Shown piece by piece: positions 41,369 through 62,400 of a DNA stretch of 64,000 nt. The notes below the pieces were generated by a model. It was given only the letters and a program-made list of their open reading frames with translations. It had not been told where the DNA came from and ran no database searches. Source of the DNA: an uncultured virus (IMG/VR IMGVR_UViG_3300020020_000024). Lineage: Duplodnaviria; Heunggongvirae; Uroviricota; Caudoviricetes. The position numbers and the translations under genes are program-made. The stretch is taken from IMG/VR virus record IMGVR_UViG_3300020020_000024; one strand, written 5' to 3'. Positions within the stretch are counted from its first letter, which is position 1, and each line of letters starts with the position of its first letter.

Positions 41369-44300
41369 ATGGCCAAGAGTCTTTCAAAAATACTGGAAAA
41401 GAAAAAACATGCTAACCCTATTTACATGGATAAGGAGGATGCAAAAAAATCTATTTCCAAAATCAGCAATAAGAAATTATTATCCTTTATTAAAGAGTTC
41501 GATAAAGATGCTGATGTAAATGATTCTACCACAAAAAAACATCTGGAATCTGTTTTTTGGGCAGAATGGGATAGTCATCATGAGGACGGACAAGATAATG
41601 GTGAGATTGTTTTTCGTGCAGAGACGAGGGGCGGCAAGCGCAGGGTTGATGTTACAAAGTTTAAAGACGGCACTTATACTATTGAAGATTTTAAACATGG
41701 TAGTATAAATGCCATGATGGATTGCTCAAATAAATCTGTTGCTGAATTTGTCATCAATCAATCACTTGATGGTGATGCCAAGATAGACGGCATCAATTAC
41801 ATTGTAAAAAAGAATACTGGAGATATTCGCATTTTGGATATTGATAAAAAAGCAGCACCGCTTACAAAAAAGGAAATTGTAGAAAAACTTTCTCTTGATG
41901 TAAAAGATTTGTATGAAGAAGGCGGTCAGATTAAAAAAACAGAAGATGGTTACGAAGAATATTTGAACGAGCTTTCTGCGCAAACTAATGATCCGGAAAT
42001 TAAAGAACGTCATCCCTATGGTACATGGATGCGCAAGAGTGCGCCTAACGCATTTGAAATAGGCTTCCGCAACTGGTCAAAAGAATATCAGGGCGGCGGT
42101 CAGATTGAAAAAACGGAAGATGAATATGAAGAATATTTGAACGAACTCGGTACACCATCTGCGGATCTAGAAAGTGAAGGAGGTCGCATTCCTGATTCAA
42201 TGCCATACGGTACATGGATGCGTAAGAATGATCAGACTGCCTGGAATGTTGGATATCAGGATTGGTCAAGAGATGATAAATATGCAAAAGGTGGTAGCAC
42301 ATCTATACCTGCAATTGTAATGAGGGCTATGACTGATCGTGTTGTTGATATAGGCCAATTATCTGACCAGGAAATAAAAGACCTTAATAAGTATGTAAAG
42401 AAAGGCGTGTTGATTAAAGGAAAGGGTGGCCCGTTTCCTAAGCCTAAAACAGTATATGCAATTAAGGGCTTTGATTTTGAAAAAAATCGCACAGAAGAAG
42501 TTGAACAAATACTTTCTGATATAGAAAAATTAGAGCCGGGAACTGTTATTCGTTTTGATAAGGGTGGTGCGGTTGATTCTTCAAGAATTGATACTGCACT
42601 ACGCCAATACGCAAATACTGCTCTTTGGTCATCTACTTACATCAAAGATGACGAAGATGTTCCAATGGATCAGGATTATGGCTATGATGACATCTCAGAA
42701 AAAACAATAGCCTGGATGCGCAAGGATGTTGAAAAATTCTTTAATGAGAATATTGACAACATTGATAAATCAGAATTAGATGACGAAGCAGTAGGCCATA
42801 ATTTCTGGCTCAGTCGTAATGGCCACGGGGCCGGATTCTTTGATGCAGGTAGCGGCGATGAATTTGATGAATTGCAACAAGCCGCAAAAAAGTATAAAGA
42901 AGTAAATCTTGAAGTTGGTGACGATGACAAAGTACATGCGTTGCAAGAAAACTTTTCTGCTGGTGGCCAGCCTCTTGGCAGTACAGTTGGTCATCAGTCA
43001 TCATTTGCAAAAGGTGGCGAAATTATTGACGTTTTTACTTATTATGATAACATAGGTGGGAGGCAAACACAAGATTTTTCTTCACTAGAAGAAATTAAAA
43101 AACATATTGAAGATTTTGGTTGGCATGGAGACTCCGAAGGAGTAGTTTACAAAAATGGTCGTCCTGTATTGGAATATATTAGTAGAGAAAACGATCCAGT
43201 TGTTTTTACAGATGTTGAATTTAAAATAAATGGTCAGGTAACTCCTGAAATGGCAGAAAAATTAACCGATGAGTTTTGGAAAAAATACGGAAGGGATGAA
43301 GACGATACCAATCAAATTAAAATTTACGAATTATATGGTCAATATGATTTATATGAAAAGTATGATGAACGTTCATCAGAAATAGCACTTGGTTCAAAAG
43401 AACTTTACGCACTTCTTTCGCAAGATGATCTTAATGGTTTGTATAATGATTTGAAGAAGATATTTGATGGAGACTCGTCATTTGAAAAAGGCGGTAATGT
43501 GCAAACAGACAATCTTCGTGTGGGTGTACGGGAATTTTTGAACGAACTTGATTCAATTGGTACTGATCTTGACAATGAAGATGAAGCGACAATTGCAGAT
43601 GCAAGGTATGCGTTGGATGAAATGTTAGAGGATAAAACAAATCTTACTGTTACTGCGGTTAAAAGGATCGTGAAAAATGTTTCTAATATTGATTTTTCTG
43701 ATGAAGTAGAAGAAGAAACAAAAGAAAGATTAAAATCGGCGATAACAGAAATGAATAGAGTTTTATCTGGTAAAAAAGCAAAAAAGCAATTGCGAATAAG
43801 CGCCCATGTATGGCTTACGGCGGCAGAAGAATATTTGAAGAACGCCTATTTTCTTGAACTTAATGATATGGACTTGGATGTGGATAAGGCATTAACAGCT
43901 ATTCAAGAAAATGAAAATCCTGTTGAGTATATTGATGCTTATGCCTTAAAACATGATCTTGATAAAAACCCTGAATATGACTGGAAAGAACAAAAAGCTT
44001 TATTAAAAAAAATTGGATATGATGAATATTCAGAAGGTGGGATATTGGACGAAGAAGATCAAACATTATCTGATCAGGCAGATGAAGCCCGTGCGAAAAT
44101 AAATGAAATAGGAAAAGAACTTGGTGGTAAAGGTTATGCTCCGTACATATCCGGCCCATACCCTTTTGCATGGTATTATAAAGATGAAAATGATGAACCG
44201 AAGTTAGTACCTGAGAAGTATCAATCACAGCTTAGTGAATTGGCAGAAAAAGTTCAGGAATGGGATTCAAGATTAATGGAACTGGAATGGAAAAGTGAAT

Positions 44301-46096
44301 TTGAATCAGCAGAAGGCGAAGATGATAACGGAGAAGAAGGAGAACCATTCGCAACAGGCGGTGTCGTTGATAATCCAACCTATAATGATAAGAATCAGAA
44401 AACGGCAAATGGGATTTGGTTTACCGATGATTTTGTTGGTCATGCAGGTGCAAACTTTATCATATTTCCAGGAGATAATCACACAAAGGAAGATATTAGA
44501 AAGGCAAAAGCCTGGTTGCGTGATAATCGTGATGTGACTAGTATTGCAACAGCACAAGAAGAAGATCTAGACGAAGCGTACCGTTCTGCAATTTTCCGTC
44601 ATAAGAAAACCAAACCGCTTAAATGGTATCAGGTAAATGCAGATGATTATAAAGTTATCCGCAAGGAAAGGAAAGCCGGAACTTCAATTGATGATTTTGT
44701 TGAAAAGCATGTAATGCCACATATTGAAGAAACAGAAAACAAGAATATAAAAAAGTATGGCGAAGAAATTCGCAAGAGTTCTTACTTTGAAAAAGGTGGC
44801 CAGCCACTCGGTAGCAATGTTGGTCATCAATCTTCATTTGCATGGGGCGGTGTTGTTGGAGAAAAAAGAGCAAAAGATATTGCAGCATACATGGCGAAGT
44901 TGGGAGTTCAGCAAAAAGTTGACCTACCATATTTAAAAGAGTTTTCAGAAAAGGGATTAGTATTGGAAAACTTTTTTAAGATATTAGATGAATTACATGA
45001 TAAAGTAAATGTTGAAGGTGGAATCAGGATCAACTATGATGATAGTGTTAGGCTGAGTAATTATTTTATGGAGTATAGACTTACTCCAACGCAAGCCGAA
45101 CTGGTTAAGATATTCGGCCCGGATAAAATGGTAGATAAAAGGATAAGTTTCGCAGCAGGTGGCCAGCCTCTTGGTAGTACGGTTGATCATCAATCATCCT
45201 TTGCAAAAGGCGGTAAGAGCGAAAAGAAACTTGTACCTGGAATATTTGAGATTCCTGGAAGTGATCCGGAACACGATGTTCTTAGATATGAAGGATACCA
45301 TGATCCCGAAATTAGATGGAATGGTTTTGCAACACCTGAGTTCACTAAGGATGTAGCTACTAAAATATTAGAAGAAGCAAAGTATAAATATCGTTTTGAT
45401 GGTGAAAATCTATTTGCAACATTTGAGGAAGAAGATGGAGAACAAGAAATACCTGTATTGAAAAGAACGATTGATGGTAAGAAAGTGAATATGTATGGTG
45501 TTGGTTCGTTTGAATGGGTTTGGGAAGTAGCAAATACAGATGAAAAATTTATGGTTGAAGCAGATGACGAAAAATATGATCTTGATGCATTCCTTACTAA
45601 GTATAGCGATGAATTAACTTCCGAAGAAGAAGCGGACATTAAAAACTTGAAGCCGGGAGAAACATTGACTATTGAATCAATAGGGATGGTGAAGGTTTCA
45701 AGATTAAAGCCTGATGAATATGCAAAGGGTGGCAAGACAAAAGAAAAGGTTCAATTAGGAAAATCTTTGAACTGGTGGGATGAACTTGCAGAAGTAAGTG
45801 AAACAGGGGCATGGGGTGAAGATAAAGAGTATTTTACAGAGGCATTTGAGATCACAAAGAAAGCGGGAACAAAAAAAGACCTTGCCGCTTTCCGTGAAAA
45901 AGTTATTCCATTGTTCAATAAGCCAGAGGATCAAAGATTGCGCCATATCGGGATAGGGATCATGAACGATGTTCGTGCAATTGAAAGGAGTGAAACAGAT
46001 TACAGGTTTAATTATAAAACGAGTAAGGGAAATAGCTTTGCAACAAAGGGCTTATTTGATCTCTATCGTCAGGCATACACATACGGAGATAAATAA
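41369..46096 (+). CDS. 1575-aa acidic multi-module protein punctuated by 14 [FY]xxGG motifs
   Basis: Motifs counted by eye in the translation; three QPLGS..HQSSF cassettes. Confidence 0.85.
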   Translation: MAKSLSKILEKKKHANPIYMDKEDAKKSISKISNKKLLSFIKEFDKDADVNDSTTKKHLESVFWAEWDSHHEDGQDNGEIVFRAETRGGKRRVDVTKFKDGTYTIEDFKHGSINAMMDCSNKSVAEFVINQSLDGDAKIDGINYIVKKNTGDIRILDIDKKAAPLTKKEIVEKLSLDVKDLYEEGGQIKKTEDGYEEYLNELSAQTNDPEIKERHPYGTWMRKSAPNAFEIGFRNWSKEYQGGGQIEKTEDEYEEYLNELGTPSADLESEGGRIPDSMPYGTWMRKNDQTAWNVGYQDWSRDDKYAKGGSTSIPAIVMRAMTDRVVDIGQLSDQEIKDLNKYVKKGVLIKGKGGPFPKPKTVYAIKGFDFEKNRTEEVEQILSDIEKLEPGTVIRFDKGGAVDSSRIDTALRQYANTALWSSTYIKDDEDVPMDQDYGYDDISEKTIAWMRKDVEKFFNENIDNIDKSELDDEAVGHNFWLSRNGHGAGFFDAGSGDEFDELQQAAKKYKEVNLEVGDDDKVHALQENFSAGGQPLGSTVGHQSSFAKGGEIIDVFTYYDNIGGRQTQDFSSLEEIKKHIEDFGWHGDSEGVVYKNGRPVLEYISRENDPVVFTDVEFKINGQVTPEMAEKLTDEFWKKYGRDEDDTNQIKIYELYGQYDLYEKYDERSSEIALGSKELYALLSQDDLNGLYNDLKKIFDGDSSFEKGGNVQTDNLRVGVREFLNELDSIGTDLDNEDEATIADARYALDEMLEDKTNLTVTAVKRIVKNVSNIDFSDEVEEETKERLKSAITEMNRVLSGKKAKKQLRISAHVWLTAAEEYLKNAYFLELNDMDLDVDKALTAIQENENPVEYIDAYALKHDLDKNPEYDWKEQKALLKKIGYDEYSEGGILDEEDQTLSDQADEARAKINEIGKELGGKGYAPYISGPYPFAWYYKDENDEPKLVPEKYQSQLSELAEKVQEWDSRLMELEWKSEFESAEGEDDNGEEGEPFATGGVVDNPTYNDKNQKTANGIWFTDDFVGHAGANFIIFPGDNHTKEDIRKAKAWLRDNRDVTSIATAQEEDLDEAYRSAIFRHKKTKPLKWYQVNADDYKVIRKERKAGTSIDDFVEKHVMPHIEETENKNIKKYGEEIRKSSYFEKGGQPLGSNVGHQSSFAWGGVVGEKRAKDIAAYMAKLGVQQKVDLPYLKEFSEKGLVLENFFKILDELHDKVNVEGGIRINYDDSVRLSNYFMEYRLTPTQAELVKIFGPDKMVDKRISFAAGGQPLGSTVDHQSSFAKGGKSEKKLVPGIFEIPGSDPEHDVLRYEGYHDPEIRWNGFATPEFTKDVATKILEEAKYKYRFDGENLFATFEEEDGEQEIPVLKRTIDGKKVNMYGVGSFEWVWEVANTDEKFMVEADDEKYDLDAFLTKYSDELTSEEEADIKNLKPGETLTIESIGMVKVSRLKPDEYAKGGKTKEKVQLGKSLNWWDELAEVSETGAWGEDKEYFTEAFEITKKAGTKKDLAAFREKVIPLFNKPEDQRLRHIGIGIMNDVRAIERSETDYRFNYKTSKGNSFATKGLFDLYRQAYTYGDK

Positions 46097-49000
46097 TTTT
46101 TAATTCTTTTTTAAAAAATGTTATGGCTAAGAAATCAAGACTTTCTAAAATCCTAAATAAAAACCGAACTAAAAAAGCGGTTGTAAAGGATAAGGGTATT
46201 AAAGCAAAACATCCTGGTAAGCGTACAAGCGCATCAGGAAATGAGTATTGGGAAGGTCGTGGAAATCGTAGCGATGCTGATCGCAGAAAGAAATTTGAAG
46301 AAGGCGGCGGTGTAAGGCCAGGTCGTAAATTGACAATGAATCCAGAATTTCCGGTTCTTCATAAAAAGTATCATGAGTTAATTACTATTAAAGGGTATGG
46401 TAGAAAAAAAATGAGTATAACTCAATTGTCTGCTGATTCCGAATACAGGCAAGCTGCAAAAAAGTTATTTCCGGGCATGAGTGAAGAAGCTCATAAGCAG
46501 AAAGCAGCAGAATATGCCAATGATTATCAAAGAAAGCAGAGTACTTACAATAAAACAGTAAACGAAGAATTCAAAAAGGTATTCAATCGTGAATATCATG
46601 TATCTGATTATAAGGTAAGCGGAATTGTGAGAGAAGAATTTTCGGATGAAGTAAAAAACAAATTGAGGAATTTGATCCGTGATATGAATTTATATGAAGC
46701 TGCTTTTGATGTTCACAATTCAATGCTGAAAAAAAAGGACAAATTGAATTTAGAATTTGAGCAGGGTGGCCAGCCGCACGGTAGCACAGCAGGTCATGAG
46801 TCATCATTTGAAAAAGGTGGTTCAATAGAAGTACTTGAATTCACGATCCCTAATTGGGCTGTATCCCCGTTAATCAATGCTGATAATAGTGCGTTGACTG
46901 ATGAAGATGAAGAAAAGCTAAACAAGTTTACTGACCGCATTGTTAAAAAGTATGGCAATGCTAATTTTTCTTTGCCATCAGATGATGAATTAGAATTAGG
47001 ATTTCTTTCACAAAATGATATTGACAACCTCGGTGGTGATTGTGTTAAGTTATTACTCATGCCATCAAAAGAGTACGCAAAAGGTGGCAAGACATCTGAT
47101 ACAATCCCTTTTTCAAATAAAAAAGAAGGTGTATTTATTGCCTATCCATATAGAAAAAAGTATGTAATAGTTGATAACGTTATTGAAAAGTTGTGGGCTA
47201 ATGAATTATTTGACAATAAGCAGGACGCTATTGATTTCGCTAAGCAAAACAACCTTGATCTGATTGACGAAGAAACGCATTCTTATGAATCATATTATAA
47301 GTATGATCGTGGTGGCATGATTGCTGATTTGAAGGCCGACAAAGAAAAGTTTGATAGCATCTTCAACAACGATGATATAATGGTATTGAAGATTTCCAGT
47401 AAGAACCCATTATCATCACAACTGGAAAAGATTACAGGTGATTCCTGGAACGCTCAGGATTTTGAAGGTGATGATCTTTCGTTGGGTAAAATCATCACTA
47501 ATAAAAAAACCGGAAAAAAGTTTACCGTTGTAAATGAAAAAGAATGGGAAGATATTTTCGGTAAAGGTGCGACCTATGAGGGGCCAGCAAGAGCAAGCGG
47601 GATCATTGGTAATTTTTACGGTGAATTTAAAAAAGGATTCAGTTCAGAACAAAGAGTAAAAGATTTTTTCCAGGCCATCTATGATAATGATATTGCTATT
47701 CATCCTGACGATGATTTCAATGATATTGTTTGGTATGGATCGAGAGGCGATACAGAAGGAACAAAAACATTTACAGAGGACGAAGCTGAGCAGTTAAATA
47801 AAATAATGGAAAATGCTTTTAAGTTCTGTGATGAAAAAGGCTTAGACATCTACGAAGTTGCAGGGGAAGTTCAACAAGCAGAGTTTATTAAACGTGGAAT
47901 TATTCCCGTATATAATGGTGGAGATTACATAATGTATTCAATTGACGGAGAAGAACCAATCACATTAACTGAGTTTTATAATGCTAATAGCGGCGAAGGT
48001 GTTGAACCTTTACCGCTTGAATGGTGGTTACAGGTAAGAGCATTAAAGCCGGGAGAAAAAATGGGTAATGAACATTCTCATACTGGTTCGGGAACTATTG
48101 AAAGAATGCCTGATGCCGAAACAATGTCTAATGGTGGCGTAATGAGCAGAGATGAATATGGTGCTGCAAGAGATAAGTACGACCAGCTTACAGATTTATA
48201 TGCAGATGCTGAAACGGACGAAGAAAAGCAGAAATTACAGATACGAATCGATGAACTAGCTACAAAGATTCATCAATATGAAAGACCTGAACTATATTCA
48301 AAATTTAATGAAGGAGGAAAAACCAACATGAAAAATAATAAACTTAAAGGGCTACAAGGAAAAAGTCAATCGCAGCTTGCTGATATGTATAAGGAAAAAT
48401 ACGAAATTGATGCTAGTCATCAATCGTACAATACGCTGCTTGCTGCACTTTATTTTGACAAAAGAATCAAATATCTTACGGAAGAAGAAATCAACGAAGT
48501 GAGAAATTTTGAGTCCGGTGGTCAGCCACTAGGTAGCACCGTTGGTCATCAATCAATGTTTTTCAAAGGAGGCACACCTAAAAAGCAAATAGCAAATTCA
48601 TCAACCACCCCAATTAAATACGGTAAGAAAGGTTCAAGTCAAAGGGCTGATGGCGGTTTCGCTGGCCAGCCTCTGGGTAGTACGGTTGGTCATCAATCAT
48701 CATTTGCAAAAGGTGGTGTTGTTCGTCTTGATAGTTTTAAACATCAGGTTGAGCATAATGGAAAAATATATGTTCCTATCAACATGAAAGAATATCATAG
48801 CGGTAGAGATTTATCCAGACGTTTTAAAGCAAATTCTGATATTGCTCCTAAAGATTGGATCACAGTTGAAGTAGAAATGAGTCGCAATCTTCGTGGTAGA
48901 AATGATCTTCATGGTAAACCATATCAACCAAGTCAATATATTTTTGTTGAAAAGAGTTTAGCAAGCCAGGTGTTTCAGTCCGGTGGCCAGCCTCTTGGTA

Positions 49001-50043
49001 GTAATCTTGGTCATCAATCATCATTTAAAAAAGGTGGTCAGGCAGCTATAAAAGAAGGAGATGAAATTCCAGAACAATTAGTTTATATGTGGCCAAGTTG
49101 GGATGAAGATGTTGACGACATGAAAATAAATTTTATTGTAAAGGGAATAAGAAATACCGAAGCAGAAGGACATATCGGTAGAAAGAAAATGTATTATGTC
49201 TGCGTTGTTCCAGAAGGAACTGCTAAGAAAGTTGATGCTTATGATGTAGATGCAGAAGAATTGGAGAGTATGGAAACGCAAGAAACATTTATACCTGTTC
49301 GTGATAGAAGAATAAAAGAAAGAATAGGTACGCAATCGGCAACAATGTTTTTCAAGGGAGGCACACCAAGAAAACAAGTTGCTGCTAATAATCCATCTGC
49401 GCCTCGTTACGGTAAAAGAGTTTCAGGACAAAAAGCTGATGGTGGTTTCGCTGGCCAGCCTCTTGGTAGCAATCTTGGTCATCAATCATCATTTGATAAA
49501 GGTGGTAAGGCTAAGGCAAAAAAAGCACCTGAAATAATCTTGCATTGGATAGAAAAAAGAATAACCGAGGATAATCATAGTGAAGGGCAGAACCCTGAGA
49601 CAATGCAAACGATATTTTGGGAGCAGCTTAATAAAACATCAATGTCTAAGGCAGGATTATTTGAGTTCCTGAACGAGAAATACGGATTGCCGAATGATCC
49701 GAAGAAATATACCGCATTTGAGAATGGTCGTTTGACTTATTCAAGAATAGAAGATGGCGAAGGGGATATTCCAAGCGCTGCAATGATGCAACAGTTCAAT
49801 GAGGATAAAATAAATCTATGGTCTGCTGATTTTGATATTTATATTTCTTATGCAGTTATCAGGCCAGTATCGGTAGAAGAAATGGCCGAATGGGGTGCAG
49901 AAAAATATGAGCAGGGCGGCGCAGTTGCCGGGTCGGAACATTTAAACATTGCTTATCCTGCGGACACAGCCGGATATTTTAAAGATGGTGGTAAACCGCT
50001 CGGTAGCGATGTTGGCCATCAAAGTCAATTTAAGCAGGGCGGC
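42962..50043 (+). repeat. dispersed 57-nt coding repeat, 9 copies (GGQPLGSxxGHQSSFxKGG)
   Basis: Copies start near 42962, 44795, 45158, 46765, 48517, 48661, 48982, 49450 and 49987. Confidence 0.95.
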
Positions 50044-50403
50044 GTTGCTCGTATTCCAAACCAGGAAGCAAATGTTTATGCTGAATTGAAAGAGGATTTC
50101 AAGGGAAACAACCTGGAAGGAAAAACATTGGACAATAAAGATTATGCTGTTCTCAGCTTTGGTCATTATCCTATTTGGTATTTCAATAGTCAGGAGCAGA
50201 AGTGGTATGGGAATAAAGACCCATATTCTACAAGCACTAAGAGACATATTGCTGAAAGTCGTCCTGATTGGAATGCAACTATTTTATCACATGAAGAAAT
50301 GCTTAAAAAAATGCAGACGGCGCAGGAATTTGATCTCGGTGGTATCGTAGTGCAGGAAATGTTCCCGCATAATATTGATAATACCGGACTGGCCAAAAAC
50401 TAA
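46123..50403 (+). CDS. 1426-aa multi-module protein with about 18 [FYM]xxGG motifs
   Basis: Basic N-terminus; six QPLGS-type cassettes. Confidence 0.85.
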   Translation: MAKKSRLSKILNKNRTKKAVVKDKGIKAKHPGKRTSASGNEYWEGRGNRSDADRRKKFEEGGGVRPGRKLTMNPEFPVLHKKYHELITIKGYGRKKMSITQLSADSEYRQAAKKLFPGMSEEAHKQKAAEYANDYQRKQSTYNKTVNEEFKKVFNREYHVSDYKVSGIVREEFSDEVKNKLRNLIRDMNLYEAAFDVHNSMLKKKDKLNLEFEQGGQPHGSTAGHESSFEKGGSIEVLEFTIPNWAVSPLINADNSALTDEDEEKLNKFTDRIVKKYGNANFSLPSDDELELGFLSQNDIDNLGGDCVKLLLMPSKEYAKGGKTSDTIPFSNKKEGVFIAYPYRKKYVIVDNVIEKLWANELFDNKQDAIDFAKQNNLDLIDEETHSYESYYKYDRGGMIADLKADKEKFDSIFNNDDIMVLKISSKNPLSSQLEKITGDSWNAQDFEGDDLSLGKIITNKKTGKKFTVVNEKEWEDIFGKGATYEGPARASGIIGNFYGEFKKGFSSEQRVKDFFQAIYDNDIAIHPDDDFNDIVWYGSRGDTEGTKTFTEDEAEQLNKIMENAFKFCDEKGLDIYEVAGEVQQAEFIKRGIIPVYNGGDYIMYSIDGEEPITLTEFYNANSGEGVEPLPLEWWLQVRALKPGEKMGNEHSHTGSGTIERMPDAETMSNGGVMSRDEYGAARDKYDQLTDLYADAETDEEKQKLQIRIDELATKIHQYERPELYSKFNEGGKTNMKNNKLKGLQGKSQSQLADMYKEKYEIDASHQSYNTLLAALYFDKRIKYLTEEEINEVRNFESGGQPLGSTVGHQSMFFKGGTPKKQIANSSTTPIKYGKKGSSQRADGGFAGQPLGSTVGHQSSFAKGGVVRLDSFKHQVEHNGKIYVPINMKEYHSGRDLSRRFKANSDIAPKDWITVEVEMSRNLRGRNDLHGKPYQPSQYIFVEKSLASQVFQSGGQPLGSNLGHQSSFKKGGQAAIKEGDEIPEQLVYMWPSWDEDVDDMKINFIVKGIRNTEAEGHIGRKKMYYVCVVPEGTAKKVDAYDVDAEELESMETQETFIPVRDRRIKERIGTQSATMFFKGGTPRKQVAANNPSAPRYGKRVSGQKADGGFAGQPLGSNLGHQSSFDKGGKAKAKKAPEIILHWIEKRITEDNHSEGQNPETMQTIFWEQLNKTSMSKAGLFEFLNEKYGLPNDPKKYTAFENGRLTYSRIEDGEGDIPSAAMMQQFNEDKINLWSADFDIYISYAVIRPVSVEEMAEWGAEKYEQGGAVAGSEHLNIAYPADTAGYFKDGGKPLGSDVGHQSQFKQGGVARIPNQEANVYAELKEDFKGNNLEGKTLDNKDYAVLSFGHYPIWYFNSQEQKWYGNKDPYSTSTKRHIAESRPDWNATILSHEEMLKKMQTAQEFDLGGIVVQEMFPHNIDNTGLAKN

Positions 50404-50415
50404 GAAAAACCGAAC

Positions 50416-52728
50416 ATGCTTTACATATATAAATGCAATAAGGCTGCTAGTAGATTGCAGCTATCTGTTAGTAATAGTAACGGTCAAACCATTTGGGGTT
50501 TGACCTATCCTGTTTATACAGAGAATGCCGCTACTGGTGGACTTGAACAAGACCCTACTATTATCGAACTTGGAATAATGAGGGATACTGATGATGTAGA
50601 TGGATTAAAAAACTATCTACTGCAGCAGTCAATTATTAAGCCTGATGATGAATTAATAAATGAAAAAGGATATGCTGATAAAGTAAGTAATGAAAAAAAA
50701 CAGAACAGGATCGTTGAGATCACTAAGACTAATCAAGATTTGGAAAGTCAATACCTGCAAGCAAGAACACTTTTTTGCAGAGAAGGCGGTATCCTTCATG
50801 GATCAAACACAACTCAGATAAAGACAATGGTTGATGCTGGTTACAATGAGTTGTCTGAGTTGCAGGGAATTTCATTTGCAAAGGGTGGAACAATTGAGGT
50901 TGATACTGTGCTATTGCCGGCACTCATAGCAGACCAAGTTGCATCAAAAGAAGTGGCCAATAATTTTAGAACTTCATCTTTGCCTGATGATTCAAAATCA
51001 AAACTAACTATTGAATTGACGGATTACCTTACCGATCATGCAAATACCCTTTATTCCAATAGCGAACATTTCAAAAAAATGTTAAATGCGAATGGTAACA
51101 AGGGCAGAGATAATCTTTATATGTTCATGCAGCATTGGAGTAAAGCATGGATGAATAAAAAAGCATGGTTGCCAAATGGCGGTAGAATCAATTCGAATTC
51201 TTTTCAAAAGGGTGGCAATATTGGAAATAATATTCTTTATTCGGTTGTGTATGGTGAAAATAGATTTGACTTTCACTTCAATAATGATAAGTCATTTATG
51301 CTCGTTGATCACATTACGGATTTCAGGGGAACGCAATTTGAGAGCATGTATCCAAACACAGGTGGTATTTCAAAAATAACAGGTGCATTCAAACAGCCGA
51401 TAATAAAAGGATTCAATGATAAAGATGAAACTGTTTCTATTAATCAGATAGGCAGAAAGATGCTTAAAGATTGGAAAGATATTTCTATGCCGTATGAAAA
51501 AGAGAGGGTGGTCACGGTTGATAGCTTTGAAAAAGGTGGTGTTACAAATAAAATAAAACTTGTTGTTGCTGACGAAAACACTCTTGGCTATATTGATCCA
51601 AGAGTACCCGATCATTTAAACATATTACATGGCTCTATTCTTAAAGGTTCTAACCTGGACTGGAGAAATGGCCCCACTTATGTTATGGGAAGAAATATTC
51701 GTTTGGCAAGTGAAAAAGATTTCAATGATTATGGAGTTATGTTTGATGGATATAAAAACTCAGGTGACTTTGAATATGCAGAACCTGCTAGTGAGAATTC
51801 ATTTGCAAAAGGTGGTGTAACTGATGAAGCGAAAGAAAATAGAAAGTTTTATTTGGAGCAGGTCAGGAAAATAGCAAAAGAAAAAGGTTACCGTACACAA
51901 GGAGACTTTATTTTTCTTTATCATGGCACTAATCAAGCTAATCATAAAAAGATAATCAAATCGGCAAAGTATAAAGCAGGAACTTGGTTTGCGGTAGATG
52001 AAGAAACGGCAAGGAAATACGGCAGACAATCTATTAGTAAAGGTGAACCTGTTGTTTCGATTGCAATTGTTTATATGGGCAGTCTTTATTACAATGGCTA
52101 TTTTTCTTCCTTAGAGGATTTGTATTTGCAGAATGGTAAATATCAGCCCAAAGATATGAACCTGTTTGCGACAGGAGGAACAGCTAAACTAAACATAACA
52201 AGGCAAAAGTTTGATCTTGGCGGCGAAGCGAATGATTATAAAATTGAAAAGTCATTTTATGTAAGGGATACTTTAGTTGATAAAGATCACTTCAATTCAC
52301 TTCCTATCGAAAAAAGAAAAGCAATAACGGAGGCAATTGCAAAAGCCCCACGAAATTATATTGATGCAAGAACGGCACTTGGCCCCGATCAGGCTCGTAG
52401 AATGAATGATAAGCAAAGAGATAAGTTAAGTGATACTGCACTTCAAATGTTTCGTGTCGAAGATGAAGTAAAAGAATTACTCAAATCCGACGACCAGGCT
52501 GAAAAAGAAAAAACACAGGCTAGGATAAAGGAACTTGAATCAAAGAAATTGCAACTGACTCGTCATAATGAAACATTGCATCAGGTCTATAAACACAAAT
52601 TGGAGTCAAAAAGAGACAATCCGGCTAAAAGAACCGTTACGGATAATAATGAACGATTGAGGTTGATTGACGAAGAATTATCTTCCCTTCAAAAAAAAAT
52701 AACCCATGTCCAACGTATCAAAATATAA
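50416..52728 (+). CDS. 770-aa multi-module protein with 6 FxxGG motifs, including an ADP-ribosyltransferase-like module
   Basis: FAKGG, FQKGG, FEKGG, FAKGG, FATGG, FDLGG; LYHGT module; C-terminal coiled coil. Confidence 0.8.
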   Translation: MLYIYKCNKAASRLQLSVSNSNGQTIWGLTYPVYTENAATGGLEQDPTIIELGIMRDTDDVDGLKNYLLQQSIIKPDDELINEKGYADKVSNEKKQNRIVEITKTNQDLESQYLQARTLFCREGGILHGSNTTQIKTMVDAGYNELSELQGISFAKGGTIEVDTVLLPALIADQVASKEVANNFRTSSLPDDSKSKLTIELTDYLTDHANTLYSNSEHFKKMLNANGNKGRDNLYMFMQHWSKAWMNKKAWLPNGGRINSNSFQKGGNIGNNILYSVVYGENRFDFHFNNDKSFMLVDHITDFRGTQFESMYPNTGGISKITGAFKQPIIKGFNDKDETVSINQIGRKMLKDWKDISMPYEKERVVTVDSFEKGGVTNKIKLVVADENTLGYIDPRVPDHLNILHGSILKGSNLDWRNGPTYVMGRNIRLASEKDFNDYGVMFDGYKNSGDFEYAEPASENSFAKGGVTDEAKENRKFYLEQVRKIAKEKGYRTQGDFIFLYHGTNQANHKKIIKSAKYKAGTWFAVDEETARKYGRQSISKGEPVVSIAIVYMGSLYYNGYFSSLEDLYLQNGKYQPKDMNLFATGGTAKLNITRQKFDLGGEANDYKIEKSFYVRDTLVDKDHFNSLPIEKRKAITEAIAKAPRNYIDARTALGPDQARRMNDKQRDKLSDTALQMFRVEDEVKELLKSDDQAEKEKTQARIKELESKKLQLTRHNETLHQVYKHKLESKRDNPAKRTVTDNNERLRLIDEELSSLQKKITHVQRIKI

Positions 52729-55700
52729 GAAAGTTCAGTTCAAAGGAGATGATGATGTTTTCTATTATGTAATAGAAGATAAAGGGGATAGTTATAAAGT
52801 TGTTATTGACGAGAAGATCAACCATTTTAAAAGTACCGAAGGCACTCCGGAGGAAATGTATTATGTTGAGTTTATCCCAAAATCGGAATTCAAATCTGAA
52901 ACGTTTGATGATGGTGGGTCGCTTGATTCTTTTGACCAATGGAAGAACGGCCCTGGTTATACTGCTGCGATAACAGCATTAAATGAAAAAGACATCAATT
53001 ATTTATCATGGTCTGATGTTGACATTTATAAGTGGTGGTTGAAGTACGACGAAGATGAAGAATTTGCCAAAGGCGGTTCAGTTGATGAACAAGTCCAGGA
53101 GTTGCTTGATAAAAAACAAGAGAAAAAACAATTTAAAGATATTGGCAAAAGAGTTGCAGGAAGCAAAAAAGAAAAACGAGCTTACTCACTAATTACATTT
53201 TCTGACCTGTCTGATCTTGAACAGGACGAATTAACCGCACATGAAATAGTTACAAAGGATCGTGTATATCCAGAAGTGAACGTTGCCGAACAAAAAGCAG
53301 CCGGGGTAAGTAGTGGTGCTGCATTTCTTAAAGTTGAATTGCGAAAAAGTTGTGCTGCACAGCCGCCAAACAGTAAAGATAAACGTGCTTCATTCATTTC
53401 CTTCATCCAGGTTCTTACAGCAAGACACGATAATGTAAAAAGCGTTACTCAATTAAGAGAATCCTGGTATGGACTTCGTGACCTTAATGAAGAACAGATC
53501 ATTGAATACCTTTTTAATCCTATCTATAAAACATTAAGCGACGAAATAAAAAAGACGGCAAAGGACAGATTCAAAACTGCATTTCCTTTTTATTCTTATG
53601 CTAAAGGTTCATTTATTGAACAGGTAATTAGCGAAGTGTTTGGAAAAAGATTTTCAAACTTTTTATTTTTTCAAAGCGATTCTGCAAAAGAGGCATATCA
53701 AAAAGCCAAGGATCTAGAAGCGGTTACCGCAGAACAGGAGATTGAGCGTACTGCAAGGTATTTGGAGATAAGACAGAACGCCATCAATAAAACAAAAGAA
53801 AAAATAAAAGAATATACTGACGCATCGGAAGATCAGTTAAAGGAACTCACCAAGAATTGGTCTCGGTTAGACCCGTTATGGAAAAAGCATCCGGAAGAAT
53901 TCAGGAAGTTTGGTCTCAATTATTATAACAGGAAATTAAAAGACGACCAGGCTGCATTTGATAATGTTCCTGCTTCCTATAAGGAGCGTCCTGATGATTG
54001 GAGTTGGTTTGAGCAGCCAAAGGATAAGAAGGAGGGGCAGAGGTCGGGTGAGATGGTAATCAATAGTGGTATTCCTCTGAGTTTTATTAAACGTACTGGT
54101 GGGCTTGTAATAAAAGAAAAATATGTTGACGAAGCAAGGAACACAAACTTGGAAGAAAATCCGATCACAAATGATTTTGGATTTAAGTCAGTTCAATTTG
54201 GTAATGCCCTTCGTGATAAAGAAGCAAGAGAGCATATTCGTCATTTCCTCGGTGCTATATCAGATATGGCTGAGGTTCTTGACATAGATATAAAAGCAAT
54301 GAATGGAATAGGTGGGCTTAGTATGGCATTTGCCGCCCGGGGCGCAGGTAGAGCATTAGCGCACTATGAACCAGGAAGGGCGATCATCAATCTTACTAAT
54401 AAGCGTGGCGATGGTACTGTTGCGCATGAGTATGCTCACTATATTGATAACGCTATCATGATTCACGGCAGGGAGAGAACAACCACATCACATGCAACTG
54501 AAAGAACAACTCCAAGTATTGAAGATAGAATACAAAATGAAAATGTTGCAGAAGCGGTGAGAGCCATTGTTCATTTTATCAATAAGGGTAAGCCTGGGAT
54601 CACACCGGGGGTAACAAAATATTTTGCTAGTTGGAAAATTGGTGAAATAAGATCATTCAATAAGGGGAAGAAATCTGTTACGCTTGATAAACCTCCACGT
54701 TTTTACGACGAAGTAAAAAAAGAATTTACAGAAGTGCAGATGCTTGATACGATTGAGGACACGATCAAGGATTTGAAATCGAAAACAAGGATTGCACGTT
54801 CACTCGTTACTGATGATCCTATCAGGCAGTCTCAGATATTTGGTTTTGTCATTGCTCATTTCAACTTAGATGATTATGAAGTAGAGTTTGATGCGCCAAA
54901 TGAAAGTGCCTACAAATATTATAGTAGTCGTATGCGCAGTCAGTATTGGATCGCCATAGCAGAAATGTTTGCCCGTGCTTTTGAATGTTTTGTTTTTGAC
55001 AAATTGCAATCTCTGGGCCGCATGAATAATTATTTAGTAAGTGGATCGCTGTTTGAAAAACAAATATTTACTGCCGAAGGTGGTTTTACTTATGTGTATC
55101 CATTTGGTGCTGAAAGAAAATATTTATATGGTTTGTATGACAATCTTATCCAAGTAATAAAAAAAGAGTATGGATTGAAATCATTTGAGACCTTTACTGA
55201 TATCAGGGAAGATGAATATGTTGCATTTGATGAACAAAAAGAAAAAGGTGGTAGTCTGGAAGGCCCGGGTTGGAGAAAATCGGAATATGCAAAGGGTGGA
55301 ACAGTTGACATGAAGGGAAAACTTTCAGATTATCTGCACCAGCTTGAAAAGGATGAAATATATGACGAAGATTTGGAAATGTCAATTTGGAGGGTAGAAG
55401 GATATTCTCATGATCTTTCTGTAACTCAATGTACGTCGAGCGCCATGCTTATTGCAGATACATTTGGTGGCAAAGTATATGGTTATTCTCTTGACATGGA
55501 AGATAACGATAGTGAAAAAATTGGTAGTGATAGTGGTGGTCATGATTTCGCAATTGTAGGTGATTATCTTATTGACTATTGGGGCAGGTATGTTAATGGA
55601 GATAAAAAACTTAAACCAGTTCTGCATTTAAAAGAGGATGCAAAAGAAATTGAAAAATATTATCTACCCCAATCAGAGTGGGAAGAAGTTCCGCATTGGA

Positions 55701-57583
55701 AATTAGAAGAACAATCAGAAGCATTTGCAAAAGGTGGTAAGGTGGATCGGTATTCAAGCGGTAATGATAAAATAAAAGCAACAGGTGTTGCGAATAAAGA
55801 AGAATTTGTAAAAAAGTATAGATCGTTTTTTTCAGACATTGCCGAAAAGGAAAAGATAGGAAAATATTTAGGCATAAGCGAACATATATTCTCTGATGGG
55901 TATGACACTATCCGCATTTTTGGTGAGAAAGGATTTGTGGAGATTGAGATTAATGATTTTGAAAATTTTAATAAGGATGGCAGTTATCGTGTAGCAACGA
56001 ACAATGTTAAGTTTATGTACGATAATGGTGGTATTGTTCCAGATCAAACGCAACTGCTAAATGATATCTCAGCATTACCAAAGGATGACTATATAAAAAA
56101 GTTGTATGCAAACGACCCTGAAAAGATGTTAGGATTTATTCAGGAGCAAGCAACTGGTATGGATCATCCCAGAACATACGCCGGTGATCCTGCTTATGGC
56201 CCGATCGTCAGAGATTACGGAGCAGACATTGTTAAACGAGCGATTCAGTTATTATCTGATAGTGAAAAACAAATGATCCTTGCTTCTTGGAAAAAAAGAA
56301 ATACAAAAGTTCCTCGTAGACTTTTAGAAATAATAGATGAAAGTGAGTTTACATCTCCGCATGATTATGATGTCGCAGTATGGATACAAAAAACTGAAAA
56401 TAGTAAGCTGGAATTAAGCAAACTGATGTCATCTAGCTATAATACAACTGAACCTGTTGTCATTGCTACTGCAATGCAAACGGTAATAAAAGCATCGAAT
56501 GAATATTACAATGCTTTTGCTTATATAAGAAAGGGAACAGAAGTAGTTGCGACCGTATATCCAAATGAGGTAGATTTGGAAGAAAGGATTCAAATGGCAA
56601 AAGGCGGCAAACTTCCAGATAGTTATATTGAATGGTCACAGGTAGAACAAAAGCTATATAAAAGACTGAAACAATTCTTTGGCGATAAGCATATCTCCGT
56701 ATTTAAAGACCTTACATTACATGACACTACAACTGATCATGTTTACCGTAAAGAGTTATTATTAAAAAAGATAGGCGGCAATATAGTCGAAGTCGTAGTT
56801 GTTTACTACCATGGCCAGAAACCTGAAAGTGTTGGAGATATTGTTTACGATATTAAAAAAGACGAACTCACTTTTGATTTTTCAGGAATTGATCATTGGA
56901 ATCTAAAATCACAAACTGAAAAATTTGCAAGTGGTGGTGAAGTAAATAAAACACTTGGAGAAGGTTGGTTTTATATTTGGGTAACTCCAAAGAATAAAAA
57001 CTTTAAGCCACACATTTGGATTGAAGGCGGTTTGTTTAATTCAAAGCTTTCAGCAACCAAACATATCAAGCAACTAAAAGAAACAAAATTATATGAAGAT
57101 GTCGAAGTTGGTCAGGTATCAGAATGGTTCAATAAGGCTGGCAATTTGGAAAACGATTCAGCACCTGCGGTTCAAAAAACATTTATTGAACAACAGGAAA
57201 ATAATCCAGAGAAAATCAGAACGTCCTTAAATGATTATAAACCTTCGCCTGTGATCCTTGCGGCCCTGGGTAAGCCTGATATTCAGAAAAGAGGAAAGGA
57301 TAAGAACGTGCATACTAAAATGGATTGGGAATTCATGGAAGGTGATACTAAATACACAATAACGGTTGATCAGAATAAAGATTCATTTGCTATTTATTCC
57401 GGTTCATATGGTTCTCATGGAGATAACATTAATATAAACAAATGGAGACAGTATGACCAGGATTTTGCGGAGAGTGCTGAGGAAATTGATCGTTATATTT
57501 TCAAGCAATGGGTTAGTATTAAGACATTGCAAGAGAGAATGGAAAAACTCATTGAGCAAATGAGAGCAAAATCAGCCGTATAA
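52706..57583 (+). CDS. 1625-aa polyvalent protein with LPD1/HExxH module and 7 [FYM]xxGG motifs
   Basis: VQFGN, AFAARG.G.A.AHYEP...INLT...GDG..AHEYAH.ID, YW....EMFARAFE, NNYL, YP.G.ER. Confidence 0.85.
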   Translation: MSNVSKYKKVQFKGDDDVFYYVIEDKGDSYKVVIDEKINHFKSTEGTPEEMYYVEFIPKSEFKSETFDDGGSLDSFDQWKNGPGYTAAITALNEKDINYLSWSDVDIYKWWLKYDEDEEFAKGGSVDEQVQELLDKKQEKKQFKDIGKRVAGSKKEKRAYSLITFSDLSDLEQDELTAHEIVTKDRVYPEVNVAEQKAAGVSSGAAFLKVELRKSCAAQPPNSKDKRASFISFIQVLTARHDNVKSVTQLRESWYGLRDLNEEQIIEYLFNPIYKTLSDEIKKTAKDRFKTAFPFYSYAKGSFIEQVISEVFGKRFSNFLFFQSDSAKEAYQKAKDLEAVTAEQEIERTARYLEIRQNAINKTKEKIKEYTDASEDQLKELTKNWSRLDPLWKKHPEEFRKFGLNYYNRKLKDDQAAFDNVPASYKERPDDWSWFEQPKDKKEGQRSGEMVINSGIPLSFIKRTGGLVIKEKYVDEARNTNLEENPITNDFGFKSVQFGNALRDKEAREHIRHFLGAISDMAEVLDIDIKAMNGIGGLSMAFAARGAGRALAHYEPGRAIINLTNKRGDGTVAHEYAHYIDNAIMIHGRERTTTSHATERTTPSIEDRIQNENVAEAVRAIVHFINKGKPGITPGVTKYFASWKIGEIRSFNKGKKSVTLDKPPRFYDEVKKEFTEVQMLDTIEDTIKDLKSKTRIARSLVTDDPIRQSQIFGFVIAHFNLDDYEVEFDAPNESAYKYYSSRMRSQYWIAIAEMFARAFECFVFDKLQSLGRMNNYLVSGSLFEKQIFTAEGGFTYVYPFGAERKYLYGLYDNLIQVIKKEYGLKSFETFTDIREDEYVAFDEQKEKGGSLEGPGWRKSEYAKGGTVDMKGKLSDYLHQLEKDEIYDEDLEMSIWRVEGYSHDLSVTQCTSSAMLIADTFGGKVYGYSLDMEDNDSEKIGSDSGGHDFAIVGDYLIDYWGRYVNGDKKLKPVLHLKEDAKEIEKYYLPQSEWEEVPHWKLEEQSEAFAKGGKVDRYSSGNDKIKATGVANKEEFVKKYRSFFSDIAEKEKIGKYLGISEHIFSDGYDTIRIFGEKGFVEIEINDFENFNKDGSYRVATNNVKFMYDNGGIVPDQTQLLNDISALPKDDYIKKLYANDPEKMLGFIQEQATGMDHPRTYAGDPAYGPIVRDYGADIVKRAIQLLSDSEKQMILASWKKRNTKVPRRLLEIIDESEFTSPHDYDVAVWIQKTENSKLELSKLMSSSYNTTEPVVIATAMQTVIKASNEYYNAFAYIRKGTEVVATVYPNEVDLEERIQMAKGGKLPDSYIEWSQVEQKLYKRLKQFFGDKHISVFKDLTLHDTTTDHVYRKELLLKKIGGNIVEVVVVYYHGQKPESVGDIVYDIKKDELTFDFSGIDHWNLKSQTEKFASGGEVNKTLGEGWFYIWVTPKNKNFKPHIWIEGGLFNSKLSATKHIKQLKETKLYEDVEVGQVSEWFNKAGNLENDSAPAVQKTFIEQQENNPEKIRTSLNDYKPSPVILAALGKPDIQKRGKDKNVHTKMDWEFMEGDTKYTITVDQNKDSFAIYSGSYGSHGDNININKWRQYDQDFAESAEEIDRYIFKQWVSIKTLQERMEKLIEQMRAKSAV

Positions 57584-58562: not shown

Positions 58563-58961
58563 ATGAAAATCCAAGCCTTAGTTGTGGACTACACAACAAA
58601 AGAACCATTGGGATATTTCAGCGCATGTTTTATAAACAATGCTACTGGAGAGCAGGAAGGAAGTTGCACTATGGTTAATAGTGATGGTTACCTGATGATA
58701 AATGATCCGCTCTTAGACAGACCGGATATATCAGTAGAAATATCCGGTGTTGGTTATAGAACACAAAGATTTTCTCCCGAAGAACTTGCACTCGGCCAGG
58801 CTGAACTGAGACAAAAAGCATCAAACACTCTTTCTGATGTTATAATCACAGGTATTAAAAAGAAACTTCCTGAGAGTCAAAAGAAGTACACCGTTCCTAT
58901 AATTCTAGGATCGGCTGCAATGGTCACTTTTAGTATATGGGCATATAAAACCTGGTTTTAA
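58563..58961 (+). CDS. carboxypeptidase-regulatory-like beta domain with C-terminal TM
   Basis: VVD..TKEPL, ISGVGY.TQ, TLSDVIIT, C-terminal TM. Confidence 0.65.
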   Translation: MKIQALVVDYTTKEPLGYFSACFINNATGEQEGSCTMVNSDGYLMINDPLLDRPDISVEISGVGYRTQRFSPEELALGQAELRQKASNTLSDVIITGIKKKLPESQKKYTVPIILGSAAMVTFSIWAYKTWF

Positions 58962-59539
58962 TGAAAATAAAACCAGTACACACTATTATAGTTGCAGGAG
59001 TTGCAGTAGCTGCATTTATGCTTTTATCTTGGAGAAAAAAAGTTTCCCGGCTGGCAAAACTTTATGCTGGTGTAAATGAGATAGGAAATAATGTTGCGGT
59101 TTCTGATCCGCAGCTTAATGAGTGGCTAAAGGCAGTTGGCTGGAAAAATGGTGAAGCCTGGTGCATGTATTTTGTAAAAGCTCTTTACATGAATGCGTTT
59201 CCCAATAAGGCTGCTGAGATCAATAAAATTCTTACAGGATCAACGCAAGGAAGTTGGGCAAATGTAAAACAGCATCCAGATGTTTTTAAAGTGATCATAG
59301 ATGGAAAGCCTATGTCTGGTGATATCATCATTTGGCAAAGCGTGAACGACCCGTCAAAAGGACATGCGGGTATCGTTTATAAAAGAGATTCAGGAGATAA
59401 ATATTTTACTGTTGAAGGAAACTCGGATTTATCCGGTAGTGCAGAAGGTGATGGTGTTTCAAAAAATACGAGAACGCTTGTTCCAGGAACTGTTGAAGGA
59501 AGTTTGAAGTTGCTTGGATTTATCCGTTTAAAGATGTGA
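58961..59539 (+). CDS. CHAP-domain peptidoglycan hydrolase with N-terminal membrane anchor
   Basis: AWCMYFV, GDIIIW, GHAGIV, TVEGN. Confidence 0.85.
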   Translation: MKIKPVHTIIVAGVAVAAFMLLSWRKKVSRLAKLYAGVNEIGNNVAVSDPQLNEWLKAVGWKNGEAWCMYFVKALYMNAFPNKAAEINKILTGSTQGSWANVKQHPDVFKVIIDGKPMSGDIIIWQSVNDPSKGHAGIVYKRDSGDKYFTVEGNSDLSGSAEGDGVSKNTRTLVPGTVEGSLKLLGFIRLKM

Positions 59540-61010: not shown

Positions 61011-61823
61011 ATGAAAAACCTAAAACTAATCGGCTTGGTTGCTTTAATCGCAATCATTATTTTCTCTTGTAAAAGAGAAATTGTACCTGAAACAAAAAAA
61101 TACCCCGGTGATGTTGAATTGTTCAATCATTCCAGGGATGCGGAAATTGCTACTAAAAAACCGCCTAAGCCGCCTAAAGGCGGTGGTGGTAATCCACACA
61201 ACCCACCCGATACAACGACTAATCCTCCGGTAGATACAGCAGAAGTTTGTATATATCTGGATTATGACGGAGAGATTTTGTCAGGCACCTTATGGAATAT
61301 CAATTACGGATCAGGTAATACACTTGTTTTTAGTCCAAGTGGATTAAGCGATACGCAAAAACAAGAAATCCGTGTAAGAGTTTCGGCTGATTATGCAAAA
61401 GAAAAAGGGTTTGTTAAGAGAATTAAAATCACAGATTCATTATCTGTTTTTAATTCTTATCCTAAGAGTAGAAGAATGCAAGTTATAATCACGGCCTCTC
61501 ATGAGTGGTATCCAGAATCTGCTGGCGGTGTTGCTTATATTAATTCATATACATGGGGAGATGGTACACCATGCTTTGTATTTAGCAAGGCTTACGACTA
61601 TAGGGCAGATTATATAGCTCATGCTTGCTCACATGAACCAGGGCACATGACCGGATGCAGACATCAATCAGTATATGACTCAAACTGTAACCTGGTAAAT
61701 AATTATAGAGTGGGTTGGATCATGGGGCAGTATGGCGGTTATCCCGCAATTTTTGGAATAGGAACAAGTATTTGTTGTACTTGCATACAAGATGATATAG
61801 CAGTAATAAATTCTAATTTATAA
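61011..61823 (+). CDS. lipoprotein metzincin-like zinc metalloprotease
   Basis: Lipobox IIFSC; GGVAY; HEPGHMTGCRH (HExGHxxGxxH); IMG Met-turn. Confidence 0.75.
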   Translation: MKNLKLIGLVALIAIIIFSCKREIVPETKKYPGDVELFNHSRDAEIATKKPPKPPKGGGGNPHNPPDTTTNPPVDTAEVCIYLDYDGEILSGTLWNINYGSGNTLVFSPSGLSDTQKQEIRVRVSADYAKEKGFVKRIKITDSLSVFNSYPKSRRMQVIITASHEWYPESAGGVAYINSYTWGDGTPCFVFSKAYDYRADYIAHACSHEPGHMTGCRHQSVYDSNCNLVNNYRVGWIMGQYGGYPAIFGIGTSICCTCIQDDIAVINSNL

Positions 61824-61845: not shown

Positions 61846-62400
61846 ATGTTACCTAAAGAATACCAATGGATCGAAACTATCGGCACACTACCAAAGATGG
61901 TTTCAGCAGCATTGCAATATATTGGAGTAAGAGAATATCCAGGTTCTAATGCTAATCCTGTCATATTGGATATGGCAAGATCGATAGGCGTTTCTGATAT
62001 ATATACTTCTGACGAGACTTCTTGGTGCGCTCTTTTCATTAACTATCTTATCAGAATAACAGCTAAACCGCAGGTAGATGTAAAGGGTGATCGTTATAAT
62101 CTTCTTCGGGCCAAGTGGCTTTTGAATTGGGGAACGAAAGTTACTGCCGGTGATGAAAAAATGGGAGACATTGTTATTATTGACCGTGATGGTGGTGGTC
62201 ATGTGTTTGTACTGATAGCAAAAACAAAAGCCGGAAACTATATTGGTATTGGTGGAAACCAGGGTAATAAAGTTTCATTTGCCGAATTTGATAAAAATAG
62301 AGTTCTTGGAATCAGAAGATTTTATACAACTGCACTTCCAGGATCAGCTAAACTTTATGTGGTTGATGGTACTGGTCAGTTTTCAACCAATGAAGCATGA
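61846..62400 (+). CDS. TIGR02594-like NlpC/P60 peptidoglycan hydrolase
   Basis: GVREYPG..NP.I, DETSWCALF, GGGHV, GGNQ. Confidence 0.85.
   Translation: MLPKEYQWIETIGTLPKMVSAALQYIGVREYPGSNANPVILDMARSIGVSDIYTSDETSWCALFINYLIRITAKPQVDVKGDRYNLLRAKWLLNWGTKVTAGDEKMGDIVIIDRDGGGHVFVLIAKTKAGNYIGIGGNQGNKVSFAEFDKNRVLGIRRFYTTALPGSAKLYVVDGTGQFSTNEA

Follow-up and report, generated by a model that had tools for sequence, protein, structure and literature searches.

A Gly-Gly junction peptide recurs between the modules of four giant polyvalent proteins encoded by an uncultured tailed phage

What joins the parts of a giant phage protein, and what might read the joints? The question is raised by four adjacent open reading frames (ORFs) in DNA of an uncultured virus of the class Caudoviricetes (IMG/VR record IMGVR_UViG_3300020020_000024). 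Our analysis concerns the window, a stretch of 64 kb from a contig that is recorded at 132,863 bp, and negative results given below for the window cover these 64 kb. The window is AT-rich (G+C of approximately 36%), and its plus strand carries nearly all of the long ORFs. Among these are the four of interest, whose products are punctuated by a short peptide of the form [F/Y/M]-x-x-G-G that is hereafter called the joint. Residue ranges in their products are written with the letter of the ORF (e.g., D125-865).

41369-46096, plus strand: ORF A, 1575 amino acids (aa), 14 joints, 15 segments
46123-50403, plus strand: ORF B, 1426 aa, 18 joints, with the most 17-aa mini-modules (described below)
50416-52728, plus strand: ORF C, 770 aa, 6 joints
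52706-57583, plus strand: ORF D, 1625 aa, 7 joints

The first 23 nucleotides (nt) of ORF D lie within the end of ORF C, in a different frame (52706-52728).

The initial annotation of this DNA, which was made from the letters and their translations alone, counted about 45 joints (14 + 18 + 6 + 7) in about 5400 aa and described the motif as sporadic elsewhere. Our recount agrees on both points. There are 45 matches to [FYM]xxGG in the 5,396 aa of ORFs A-D (8.3 per 1000 aa), versus 9 in the 14,681 aa of the 73 other plus-strand ORFs of at least 80 aa (0.61 per 1000 aa). Enrichment statistics, which the initial annotation had proposed as a check, point in the same direction, as 2000 residue shuffles of the four proteins contain a mean of 3.34 motifs (standard deviation 1.78, maximum 10) against the 45 observed. 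When the motif is narrowed to [FY]xKGG, the six-frame translation of the 64 kb holds 21 matches, and all 21 fall in the coding frames of ORFs A-D. A search for repeated peptides that was blind to the motif recovered the joint, which was the largest repeat in each of the four proteins, with joint components of 4-7 versus at most 3 in five shuffles per protein. The consensus of the joint is [S/E/D]-[S/E/K]-[F/Y]-[A/E/D]-K-G-G-x-[V/P/I/T], and the residue two positions after Gly-Gly is mostly hydrophobic (V 13, P 9, and I 7 of 45).

Splitting the four proteins after every motif produces 49 segments with a median length of 98 aa. Thirty-nine of these are at least 40 aa long and are referred to as modules, and the other 10 are shorter than 30 aa. 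The segments of ORF A measure 186, 58, 65, 91, 133, 17, 159, 182, 107, 146, 17, 104, 17, 173, and 120 aa, which reproduces the values given in the initial annotation. That annotation also held that internal duplications start and stop at motifs and that a large LPD1 module is free of them. Indeed, two duplicated pairs (A187-244 with A245-309, and B818-865 with B1081-1128) are bounded by motifs and match end to end, and the 741-aa segment D125-865 has no internal motif.

The N-termini of the first two proteins present a separate observation. ORF A begins (41369-41480) with MAKSLSKILEKKK and repeats AKKSISKISNKK at residues 25-36, and ORF B begins (46123-46165) with MAKKSRLSKILNK. By eye the two are similar (MAKxxSKIL) and may share a basic leader, and the BLAST comparison of the two is non-significant (E value of 1.5).

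Nine joints are doubled in the form F-x-x-G-G-QPLGSxxGHQSSF-x-K-G-G, which yields segments of 17 residues that we call mini-modules.

42953-43018, 44786-44851, and 45149-45214, plus strand: mini-module copies in ORF A
46756-46821, 48508-48573, 48652-48717, 48973-49038, 49441-49506, and 49975-50043, plus strand: mini-module copies in ORF B

These nine copies carry many synonymous codon differences, and the 43 joints that conform to [FY]xxGG are encoded by 40 distinct 15-nt sequences. Because the 15-mers of the joints are nearly all distinct and the mini-module copies vary synonymously, it is the peptide rather than the DNA that is conserved. Over 66 nt of DNA, eight of the copies (family D2) share 70-76% identity and runs of identical bases, so the longer units might also have a role in recombination.

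Do the segments between joints correspond to proteins that exist on their own? The initial annotation had suggested a search for stand-alone homologues, and such a search finds that 6 of the 39 modules correspond to free-standing proteins or families over nearly their full length. These six are given here together with a module of ORF B that recurs in P0005 and P0006, two relatives encoded by other contigs.

42569-42967, plus strand: A401-533, matching phrog_1915 (E value of 4e-20, profile positions 7-137 of 141) and a 127-aa coding sequence of Klebsiella phage FBKp34
45215-45733, plus strand: A1283-1455, matching phrog_9945 (E value of 2e-7), with a copy in P0006 at 1566-1673
51541-51816, plus strand: C376-467, matching phrog_11458 (E value of 9e-19) and the free-standing proteins P0160-P0168 of 81-89 aa
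51817-52179, plus strand: C468-588, ADP-ribosyltransferase-like, with a match to Pfam ART-PolyVal (E value of 1.2e-4) whose 23.3 bits are below the cut-off of 31.2
53078-55300, plus strand: D125-865, LPD1-type core of 741 aa without an internal joint, matching Pfam LPD1 (E value of 7e-15, 55 bits versus a cut-off of 27)
55301-55738, plus strand: D866-1011, YunG-like module with invariant Cys909, His946, Asp947, and Asp957 and a poorly ordered FAKGG tail
49507-49920, plus strand: B1129-1266, module common to P0005 (310-445) and P0006 (1115-1251)

The borders of several free-standing homologues lie close to the joints. Homologues P0160-P0168 of C376-467 start where the module starts, three residues past Gly-Gly, and end about 10 residues short of the next FAKGG. 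The same module is matched by small ORFs of Tenacibaculum, Flavobacterium, and Parabacteroides phages. Tenacibaculum phage pT24 was considered as a case in which both ORF C modules occur as neighboring genes, and this candidate was rejected, as gp069 alone is homologous. The core of ORF D has 75 homologues and matches whole LPD1 proteins of 644-706 aa, two of which are named from Marinilabilia. In the free-standing LPD1 proteins that were examined, a conserved N-terminal stretch aligns with the residues that directly follow FAKGG in ORF D. The YunG-like module has 233 homologues, mostly of 120-150 aa. Its match to Pfam YunG itself is weak (E value of 0.009, with 16.6 bits being below the cut-off of 27), and its atlas neighbors include clusters with 14% and 72% of their members in PF24585 / PF24591. 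In an AlphaFold2 model of D866-1011, the mean predicted local distance difference test score is 92 and falls to 70 and then 55 over the last 16 residues, which include FAKGG. The expectation in the initial annotation that joints would lie in linkers thus holds for the single joint that was modeled, in which a low-confidence tail follows the domain, and this agreement extends to that joint only.

Free-standing relatives of the modules mostly do without the motif. Joint density per 1000 aa is 0.72 among 150 YunG-like matches, 0 among 12 matches to the ORF C modules, and 1.01 among 75 LPD1 matches, and a motif within the last 15 residues is present in just 1 of 212 free-standing homologues. Likewise, 16 other multi-domain proteins with a YunG-like module contain 0-2.3 motifs per 1000 aa.

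Where else does the joint occur? The joint-rich part of ORF B, used as the query in a word-indexed search, returned only P0005 (785 aa) and P0006 (1725 aa), neither of which has a Pfam match. These proteins contain 7 and 13 joints, respectively (8 and 13 by the search that was blind to the motif). Their homologues of B1129-1266 align end to end at 46-60% identity, and in each protein the neighboring modules are different. The joints that flank these homologues keep the aromatic residue and Gly-Gly, and the middle pair varies (DK, AK, and AV before the module; EQ, AR, and AV after it). The proposal of the initial annotation that the motif acts as a plug-in joint is therefore supported, because modules match free-standing proteins and are shuffled in relatives while the joint is retained as a peptide. 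As judged by these comparisons of sequences, the joint is real and is under selection as a peptide, namely as an aromatic residue and two glycines.

Searches for further occurrences gave a mixed yield. There were no megablast matches in the phage collection, and no loci were found among IMG/VR, JGI metagenome contigs, or GTDB genome contigs with P0004, the shared-module alignment A2, and a back-translated mini-module pattern as queries. Contigs at least 99% identical to the region are present in runs of two further studies, all of which are labeled soil metagenome, and these contigs have no indel or rearrangement at the joints. No RNA runs are listed among the runs that hold the region.

Given their domain content, ORFs A-D are phage polyvalent (multi-effector) proteins. 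We assign them to this class because an LPD1 domain, an HExxH unit, and an ART-like module are the make-up by which Iyer et al. define it in the text of their 2017 study (PMC5512222). Several unrelated domains with free-standing relatives are found in one polypeptide, with the six matched modules belonging to distinct families. Of the hallmark domains, LPD1 scores above its cut-off and the HExxH signature is invariant. The ART-PolyVal match is sub-threshold, but the free-standing homologues of this module, P0158 and P0159 (129 and 141 aa), carry PF18760. The HExxH signature is located as follows:

54425-54439, plus strand: HEYAH (D574-578), HExxH signature, invariant in the family

An alignment of the ORF D core (A4, 36 sequences) displays invariant H, E, H, and D residues and a downstream Glu. 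Residues D479-587 match the NCBIfam model CLCA_X (E value of 1.3e-19) with 70.7 bits, which is below the family cut-off of 260, and the HExxH region shares 41% identity across 107 aa with Stx-phage polyvalent proteins that retain HExxH (tblastn). PADLOC reports nothing for the four proteins, and the window contains no tRNA and no Rfam matches.

Iyer et al. predicted that polyvalent proteins are delivered with the phage DNA and proposed that embedded peptidases release their domains (PMC5512222). ORFs A-D resemble these proteins in carrying many unrelated domains per phage polypeptide, including LPD1, ART-PolyVal-like, and zincin-type HExxH units. They differ in that most of their modules are small cassettes of unknown family and in that one joint is used 45 times, whereas the main text of PMC5512222 contains neither the word 'linker' nor 'glycine' and describes no conserved junction peptide. 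A second point of comparison is gp47 of phage phi24B, a protein of 2811 aa with LPD5, LPD1, and metallopeptidase domains that was found in virions by mass spectrometry and is proposed to be an ejection protein (preprint 10.64898/2026.04.10.717836). The passages of that preprint on gp47 are without a junction motif or processing, and the similarity spans just 7% of ORF D. Because the core of ORF D is related to this virion-found protein and because lysin- and hub-type genes lie just downstream, packaging of ORFs A-D in the virion is plausible by analogy.

A different repeated peptide is present in P0102 (1822 aa), an unrelated polyvalent protein. Within residues ~503-960, the peptide R-x-G-A-I-G-x-Q-P occurs four times, as compared with at most two in shuffles, and two of the four copies flank the YunG-like module of this protein. 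This repeat hints that junction peptides may exist as lineage dialects.

What, then, might read the joint? A single reader is suggested because the aromatic residue and Gly-Gly are invariant, the middle residues are variable, and the joint belongs to one lineage only. Processing directed by Gly-Gly is carried out by adenain, by pS273R of African swine fever virus (ASFV), by the coronavirus protease PLpro (LxGG), by potyvirus HC-Pro (YxVG/G), and by C39 peptidases. These systems share with ORFs A-D an anchor residue, hydrophobic or aromatic, that precedes Gly-Gly by a few positions at junctions, and Gly-Gly is conserved at the module junctions here. The searches of the window turned up none of these protease families. 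Compared with LxGG, the aromatic residue of the joint is one position further from Gly-Gly. C39 peptidases act on bacteriocin leaders and are coupled to ABC exporters; the window has neither a C39 peptidase nor an ABC exporter, and the motifs are internal and repeated, unlike leaders. A phage precedent for cutting is gp245 of the giant phage SPN3US, which, in the passages of PMC10052503 that concern it, cuts head proteins at A-X-E at 14 sites in 9 proteins, with cuts at 13 of the sites removing N-terminal propeptides. As in the situation that we envisage, one phage protease acts on packaged proteins (head and ejection proteins) by cutting at a short consensus. The differences are that gp245 cuts after Glu rather than Gly-Gly and that the substrates described there are not strings of dozens of modules.

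We tentatively consider a protease to be the most likely reader of the joint, with cutting at or beside Gly-Gly. This reading is favored because it fits the model of Iyer et al., the giant-phage precedent, and the Gly-Gly-directed proteases of other viruses. In this explanation, the giant ORFs string together cassettes that are found elsewhere as individual small genes, with every cassette closed by a lineage-specific joint composed of a short polar spacer, Phe or Tyr, any residue, usually Lys, Gly-Gly, any residue, and Val, Ile, or Pro. The polyproteins would be packaged in the virion and enter the host alongside the phage DNA. One protease would then read the joints, either in the head or after injection, and would free up to ~40 modules along with some short spacer peptides. 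This enzyme might be a head-maturation protease encoded elsewhere on the contig or the HExxH core of ORF D; the YunG-like Cys-His-Asp module of ORF D is a weaker candidate.

Several peptidase-like units and genes are present in the window. In addition to the two units of ORF D (an HExxH core with a downstream Glu and a YunG-like fold with Cys, His, and Asp), these are:

17756-18343: partial DUF1796 gene
58961-59539: CHAP protein with a membrane leader
61011-61823: 270-aa protein with a lipoprotein-like leader and the sequence HEPGHMTGCRH (HExxHxxGxxH), weak match to Reprolysin_5 (E value of 9e-4), no PDB sequence match
61846-62400: TIGR02594 protein

The gene with the zinc-protease signature (61011-61823) sits between the polyprotein ORFs and the hub-lysozyme gene.

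A number of observations weigh against processing by a protease. The initial annotation had posited a Gly-Gly-specific protease, and this element is so far unsupported, as no members of the adenain, Ulp1, JAB, C39, and M23 families were found among the 80 other ORFs of the window or among the 39 modules. Likewise, the 64-kb window contains no gene for capsid, scaffold, or portal and none for a head-maturation protease of the type of T4 gp21, phiKZ gp175, or SPN3US gp245. None of the peptidase-like genes in the window belongs to a family with known Gly-Gly specificity. Both enzyme families of ORF D also occur as free-standing proteins and in polyvalent proteins that lack the joint. Because these families occur without the joint, the ORF D enzymes are only weak candidates for the protease. 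Cutting at all joints would also free many short peptides, given that 10 of the 49 segments have fewer than 30 aa. Furthermore, the hydrophobic residue two positions after Gly-Gly could mean that the joint forms a structural turn. Support from folds or homologues for placing the joint at a domain border covers only 6 of the 39 modules, and the sequences flanking the joints exceed random sites in polarity only marginally (a fraction of 0.054 of random sets reaches the observed value or a lower one).

A strong rival to cutting, to which we nevertheless assign a lower likelihood, is that the joints stay uncut and act as docking handles that tether cargo to sites on the capsid, portal, or tail, or as hinges for unfolding and threading through the tail. 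Comparable devices are the cargo-loading peptides of encapsulins and the capsid-targeting sequence of T4. Docking would suit a motif that reaches to the hydrophobic residue two positions past Gly-Gly, which would place two anchors around a tight turn, and 45 copies with double joints 17 aa apart would suit avidity; the missing Gly-Gly protease in the window ORFs and modules also speaks for it. For a pure hinge, the invariant aromatic residue would be needless, and binding of the joint is itself a proposal made from sequence. Docking followed by cutting, as in T4, may also occur. The packaged and ejected cargo protein C1 (gp45) of the Bacteroidota phage crAss001 is instructive here, as it also carries F-x-x-G-G motifs. 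Its segments 214-245 and 425-552 are resolved by cryo-electron microscopy as bound in the tail barrel and portal, respectively, and the main text of the study (PMC10172136) has no occurrence of 'cleav' or 'proteoly', which favors docking. However, the motifs of gp45 (L003, 3988-6516), which are FDTGG at 17, FAEGG at 260, and FAYGG at 559 (3 versus 1.2 expected, a non-significant excess), all lie outside the resolved segments, with FAEGG between the two, and cutting fits this arrangement equally well. The placement of these motifs therefore means that the structure does not choose between cutting and docking. The idea that ORFs A-D are themselves crAss-like gp45/gp46 cargo was rejected, as blastp gave no match better than an E value of 0.05 and tblastn of gp45-gp52 against the window gave none at an E value of 0.01 or less.

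It is improbable, in our view, that the joints are mainly evolutionary seams, that is, conserved boundary cassettes for the swapping of modules by recombination that serve as mere linkers in the protein. The pre-toxin motifs of polymorphic toxins have been proposed as boundary cassettes of this kind. Modules of ORFs A-D are shuffled and duplicated exactly at joints, as would be expected of seams, and the identity and shared runs among the eight mini-module DNA copies fit as well. Against this, plain joints of five residues are without DNA identity, as the count of distinct 15-mers indicates, and synonymous variation under a constant peptide argues for selection on the protein. Moreover, relatives with modules of just 46-60% identity retain the aromatic residue and Gly-Gly. 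A protease that cuts at or beside Gly-Gly is the reading that we prefer, with the caution stated above.

The remaining genes place the four ORFs in a segment of a large phage, with PHROG matches and profile searches identifying a single-stranded DNA-binding protein, an SNF2 helicase, an endolysin-type CHAP protein, and a TIGR02594/hub-lysozyme protein. The window also includes a long block of sugar-nucleotide and glycosyltransferase genes. This glycan block (1-27500) is unusually long for a phage and encodes GT11, GT25, GT2, and GT10 glycosyltransferases, a DegT aminotransferase, a GDP-mannose dehydratase, an epimerase, a carbamoyltransferase, and an FkbM methyltransferase. An 856-aa glycosyltransferase-like gene (33916-36486) contains an intein splicing domain (PF14890, E value of 8.9e-11) and a LAGLIDADG homing-endonuclease domain (E value of 2.6e-7).

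Polyvalent proteins with a Gly-Gly junction peptide have apparently not been described before. No description of such a joint emerged from full-text literature searches that used the motif strings, polyvalent linkers or cleavage sites, and phage polyprotein cleavage motifs, and the matches to FEKGG are presumably to a laboratory affinity-tag sequence. The initial annotation was not aware of a characterized bacterial-virus system with this organization. This statement requires qualification in two respects, as the release of domains by peptidases had already been proposed (Iyer et al., 2017) and cutting at A-X-E in giant phages was already known.

Polyvalent proteins are thought to be the first phage weapons to be injected, and their cutting has been a prediction since 2017. 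A joint that is under selection gives exact candidate cleavage sites for this prediction. It also provides a rule by which giant orphan genes can be split into ~40 small proteins, and candidate counter-defense effectors among the modules include a thiol enzyme and a zinc enzyme as well as an ADP-ribosyltransferase-like unit. Should the joint instead prove to be a docking handle, it would offer a natural means of tagging foreign cargo for loading into capsids.

Perhaps [F/Y]-x-K-G-G is one dialect of a general junction code in phage cargo polyproteins, in which each lineage has its own peptide and a co-evolving protease, although we regard this broader idea as rather unlikely. If it were true, phages would, like eukaryotic viruses, derive dozens of small proteins from a handful of giant genes, and the Gly-Gly dialect would be common to many ocean and soil Bacteroidota phages, including crAss-like phages. 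Such a code could explain why gp45 of crAss001 is found in both the tail and the capsid, with FAEGG lying between its resolved pieces. The freed modules would end in Gly-Gly, as do ubiquitin-type modifiers.

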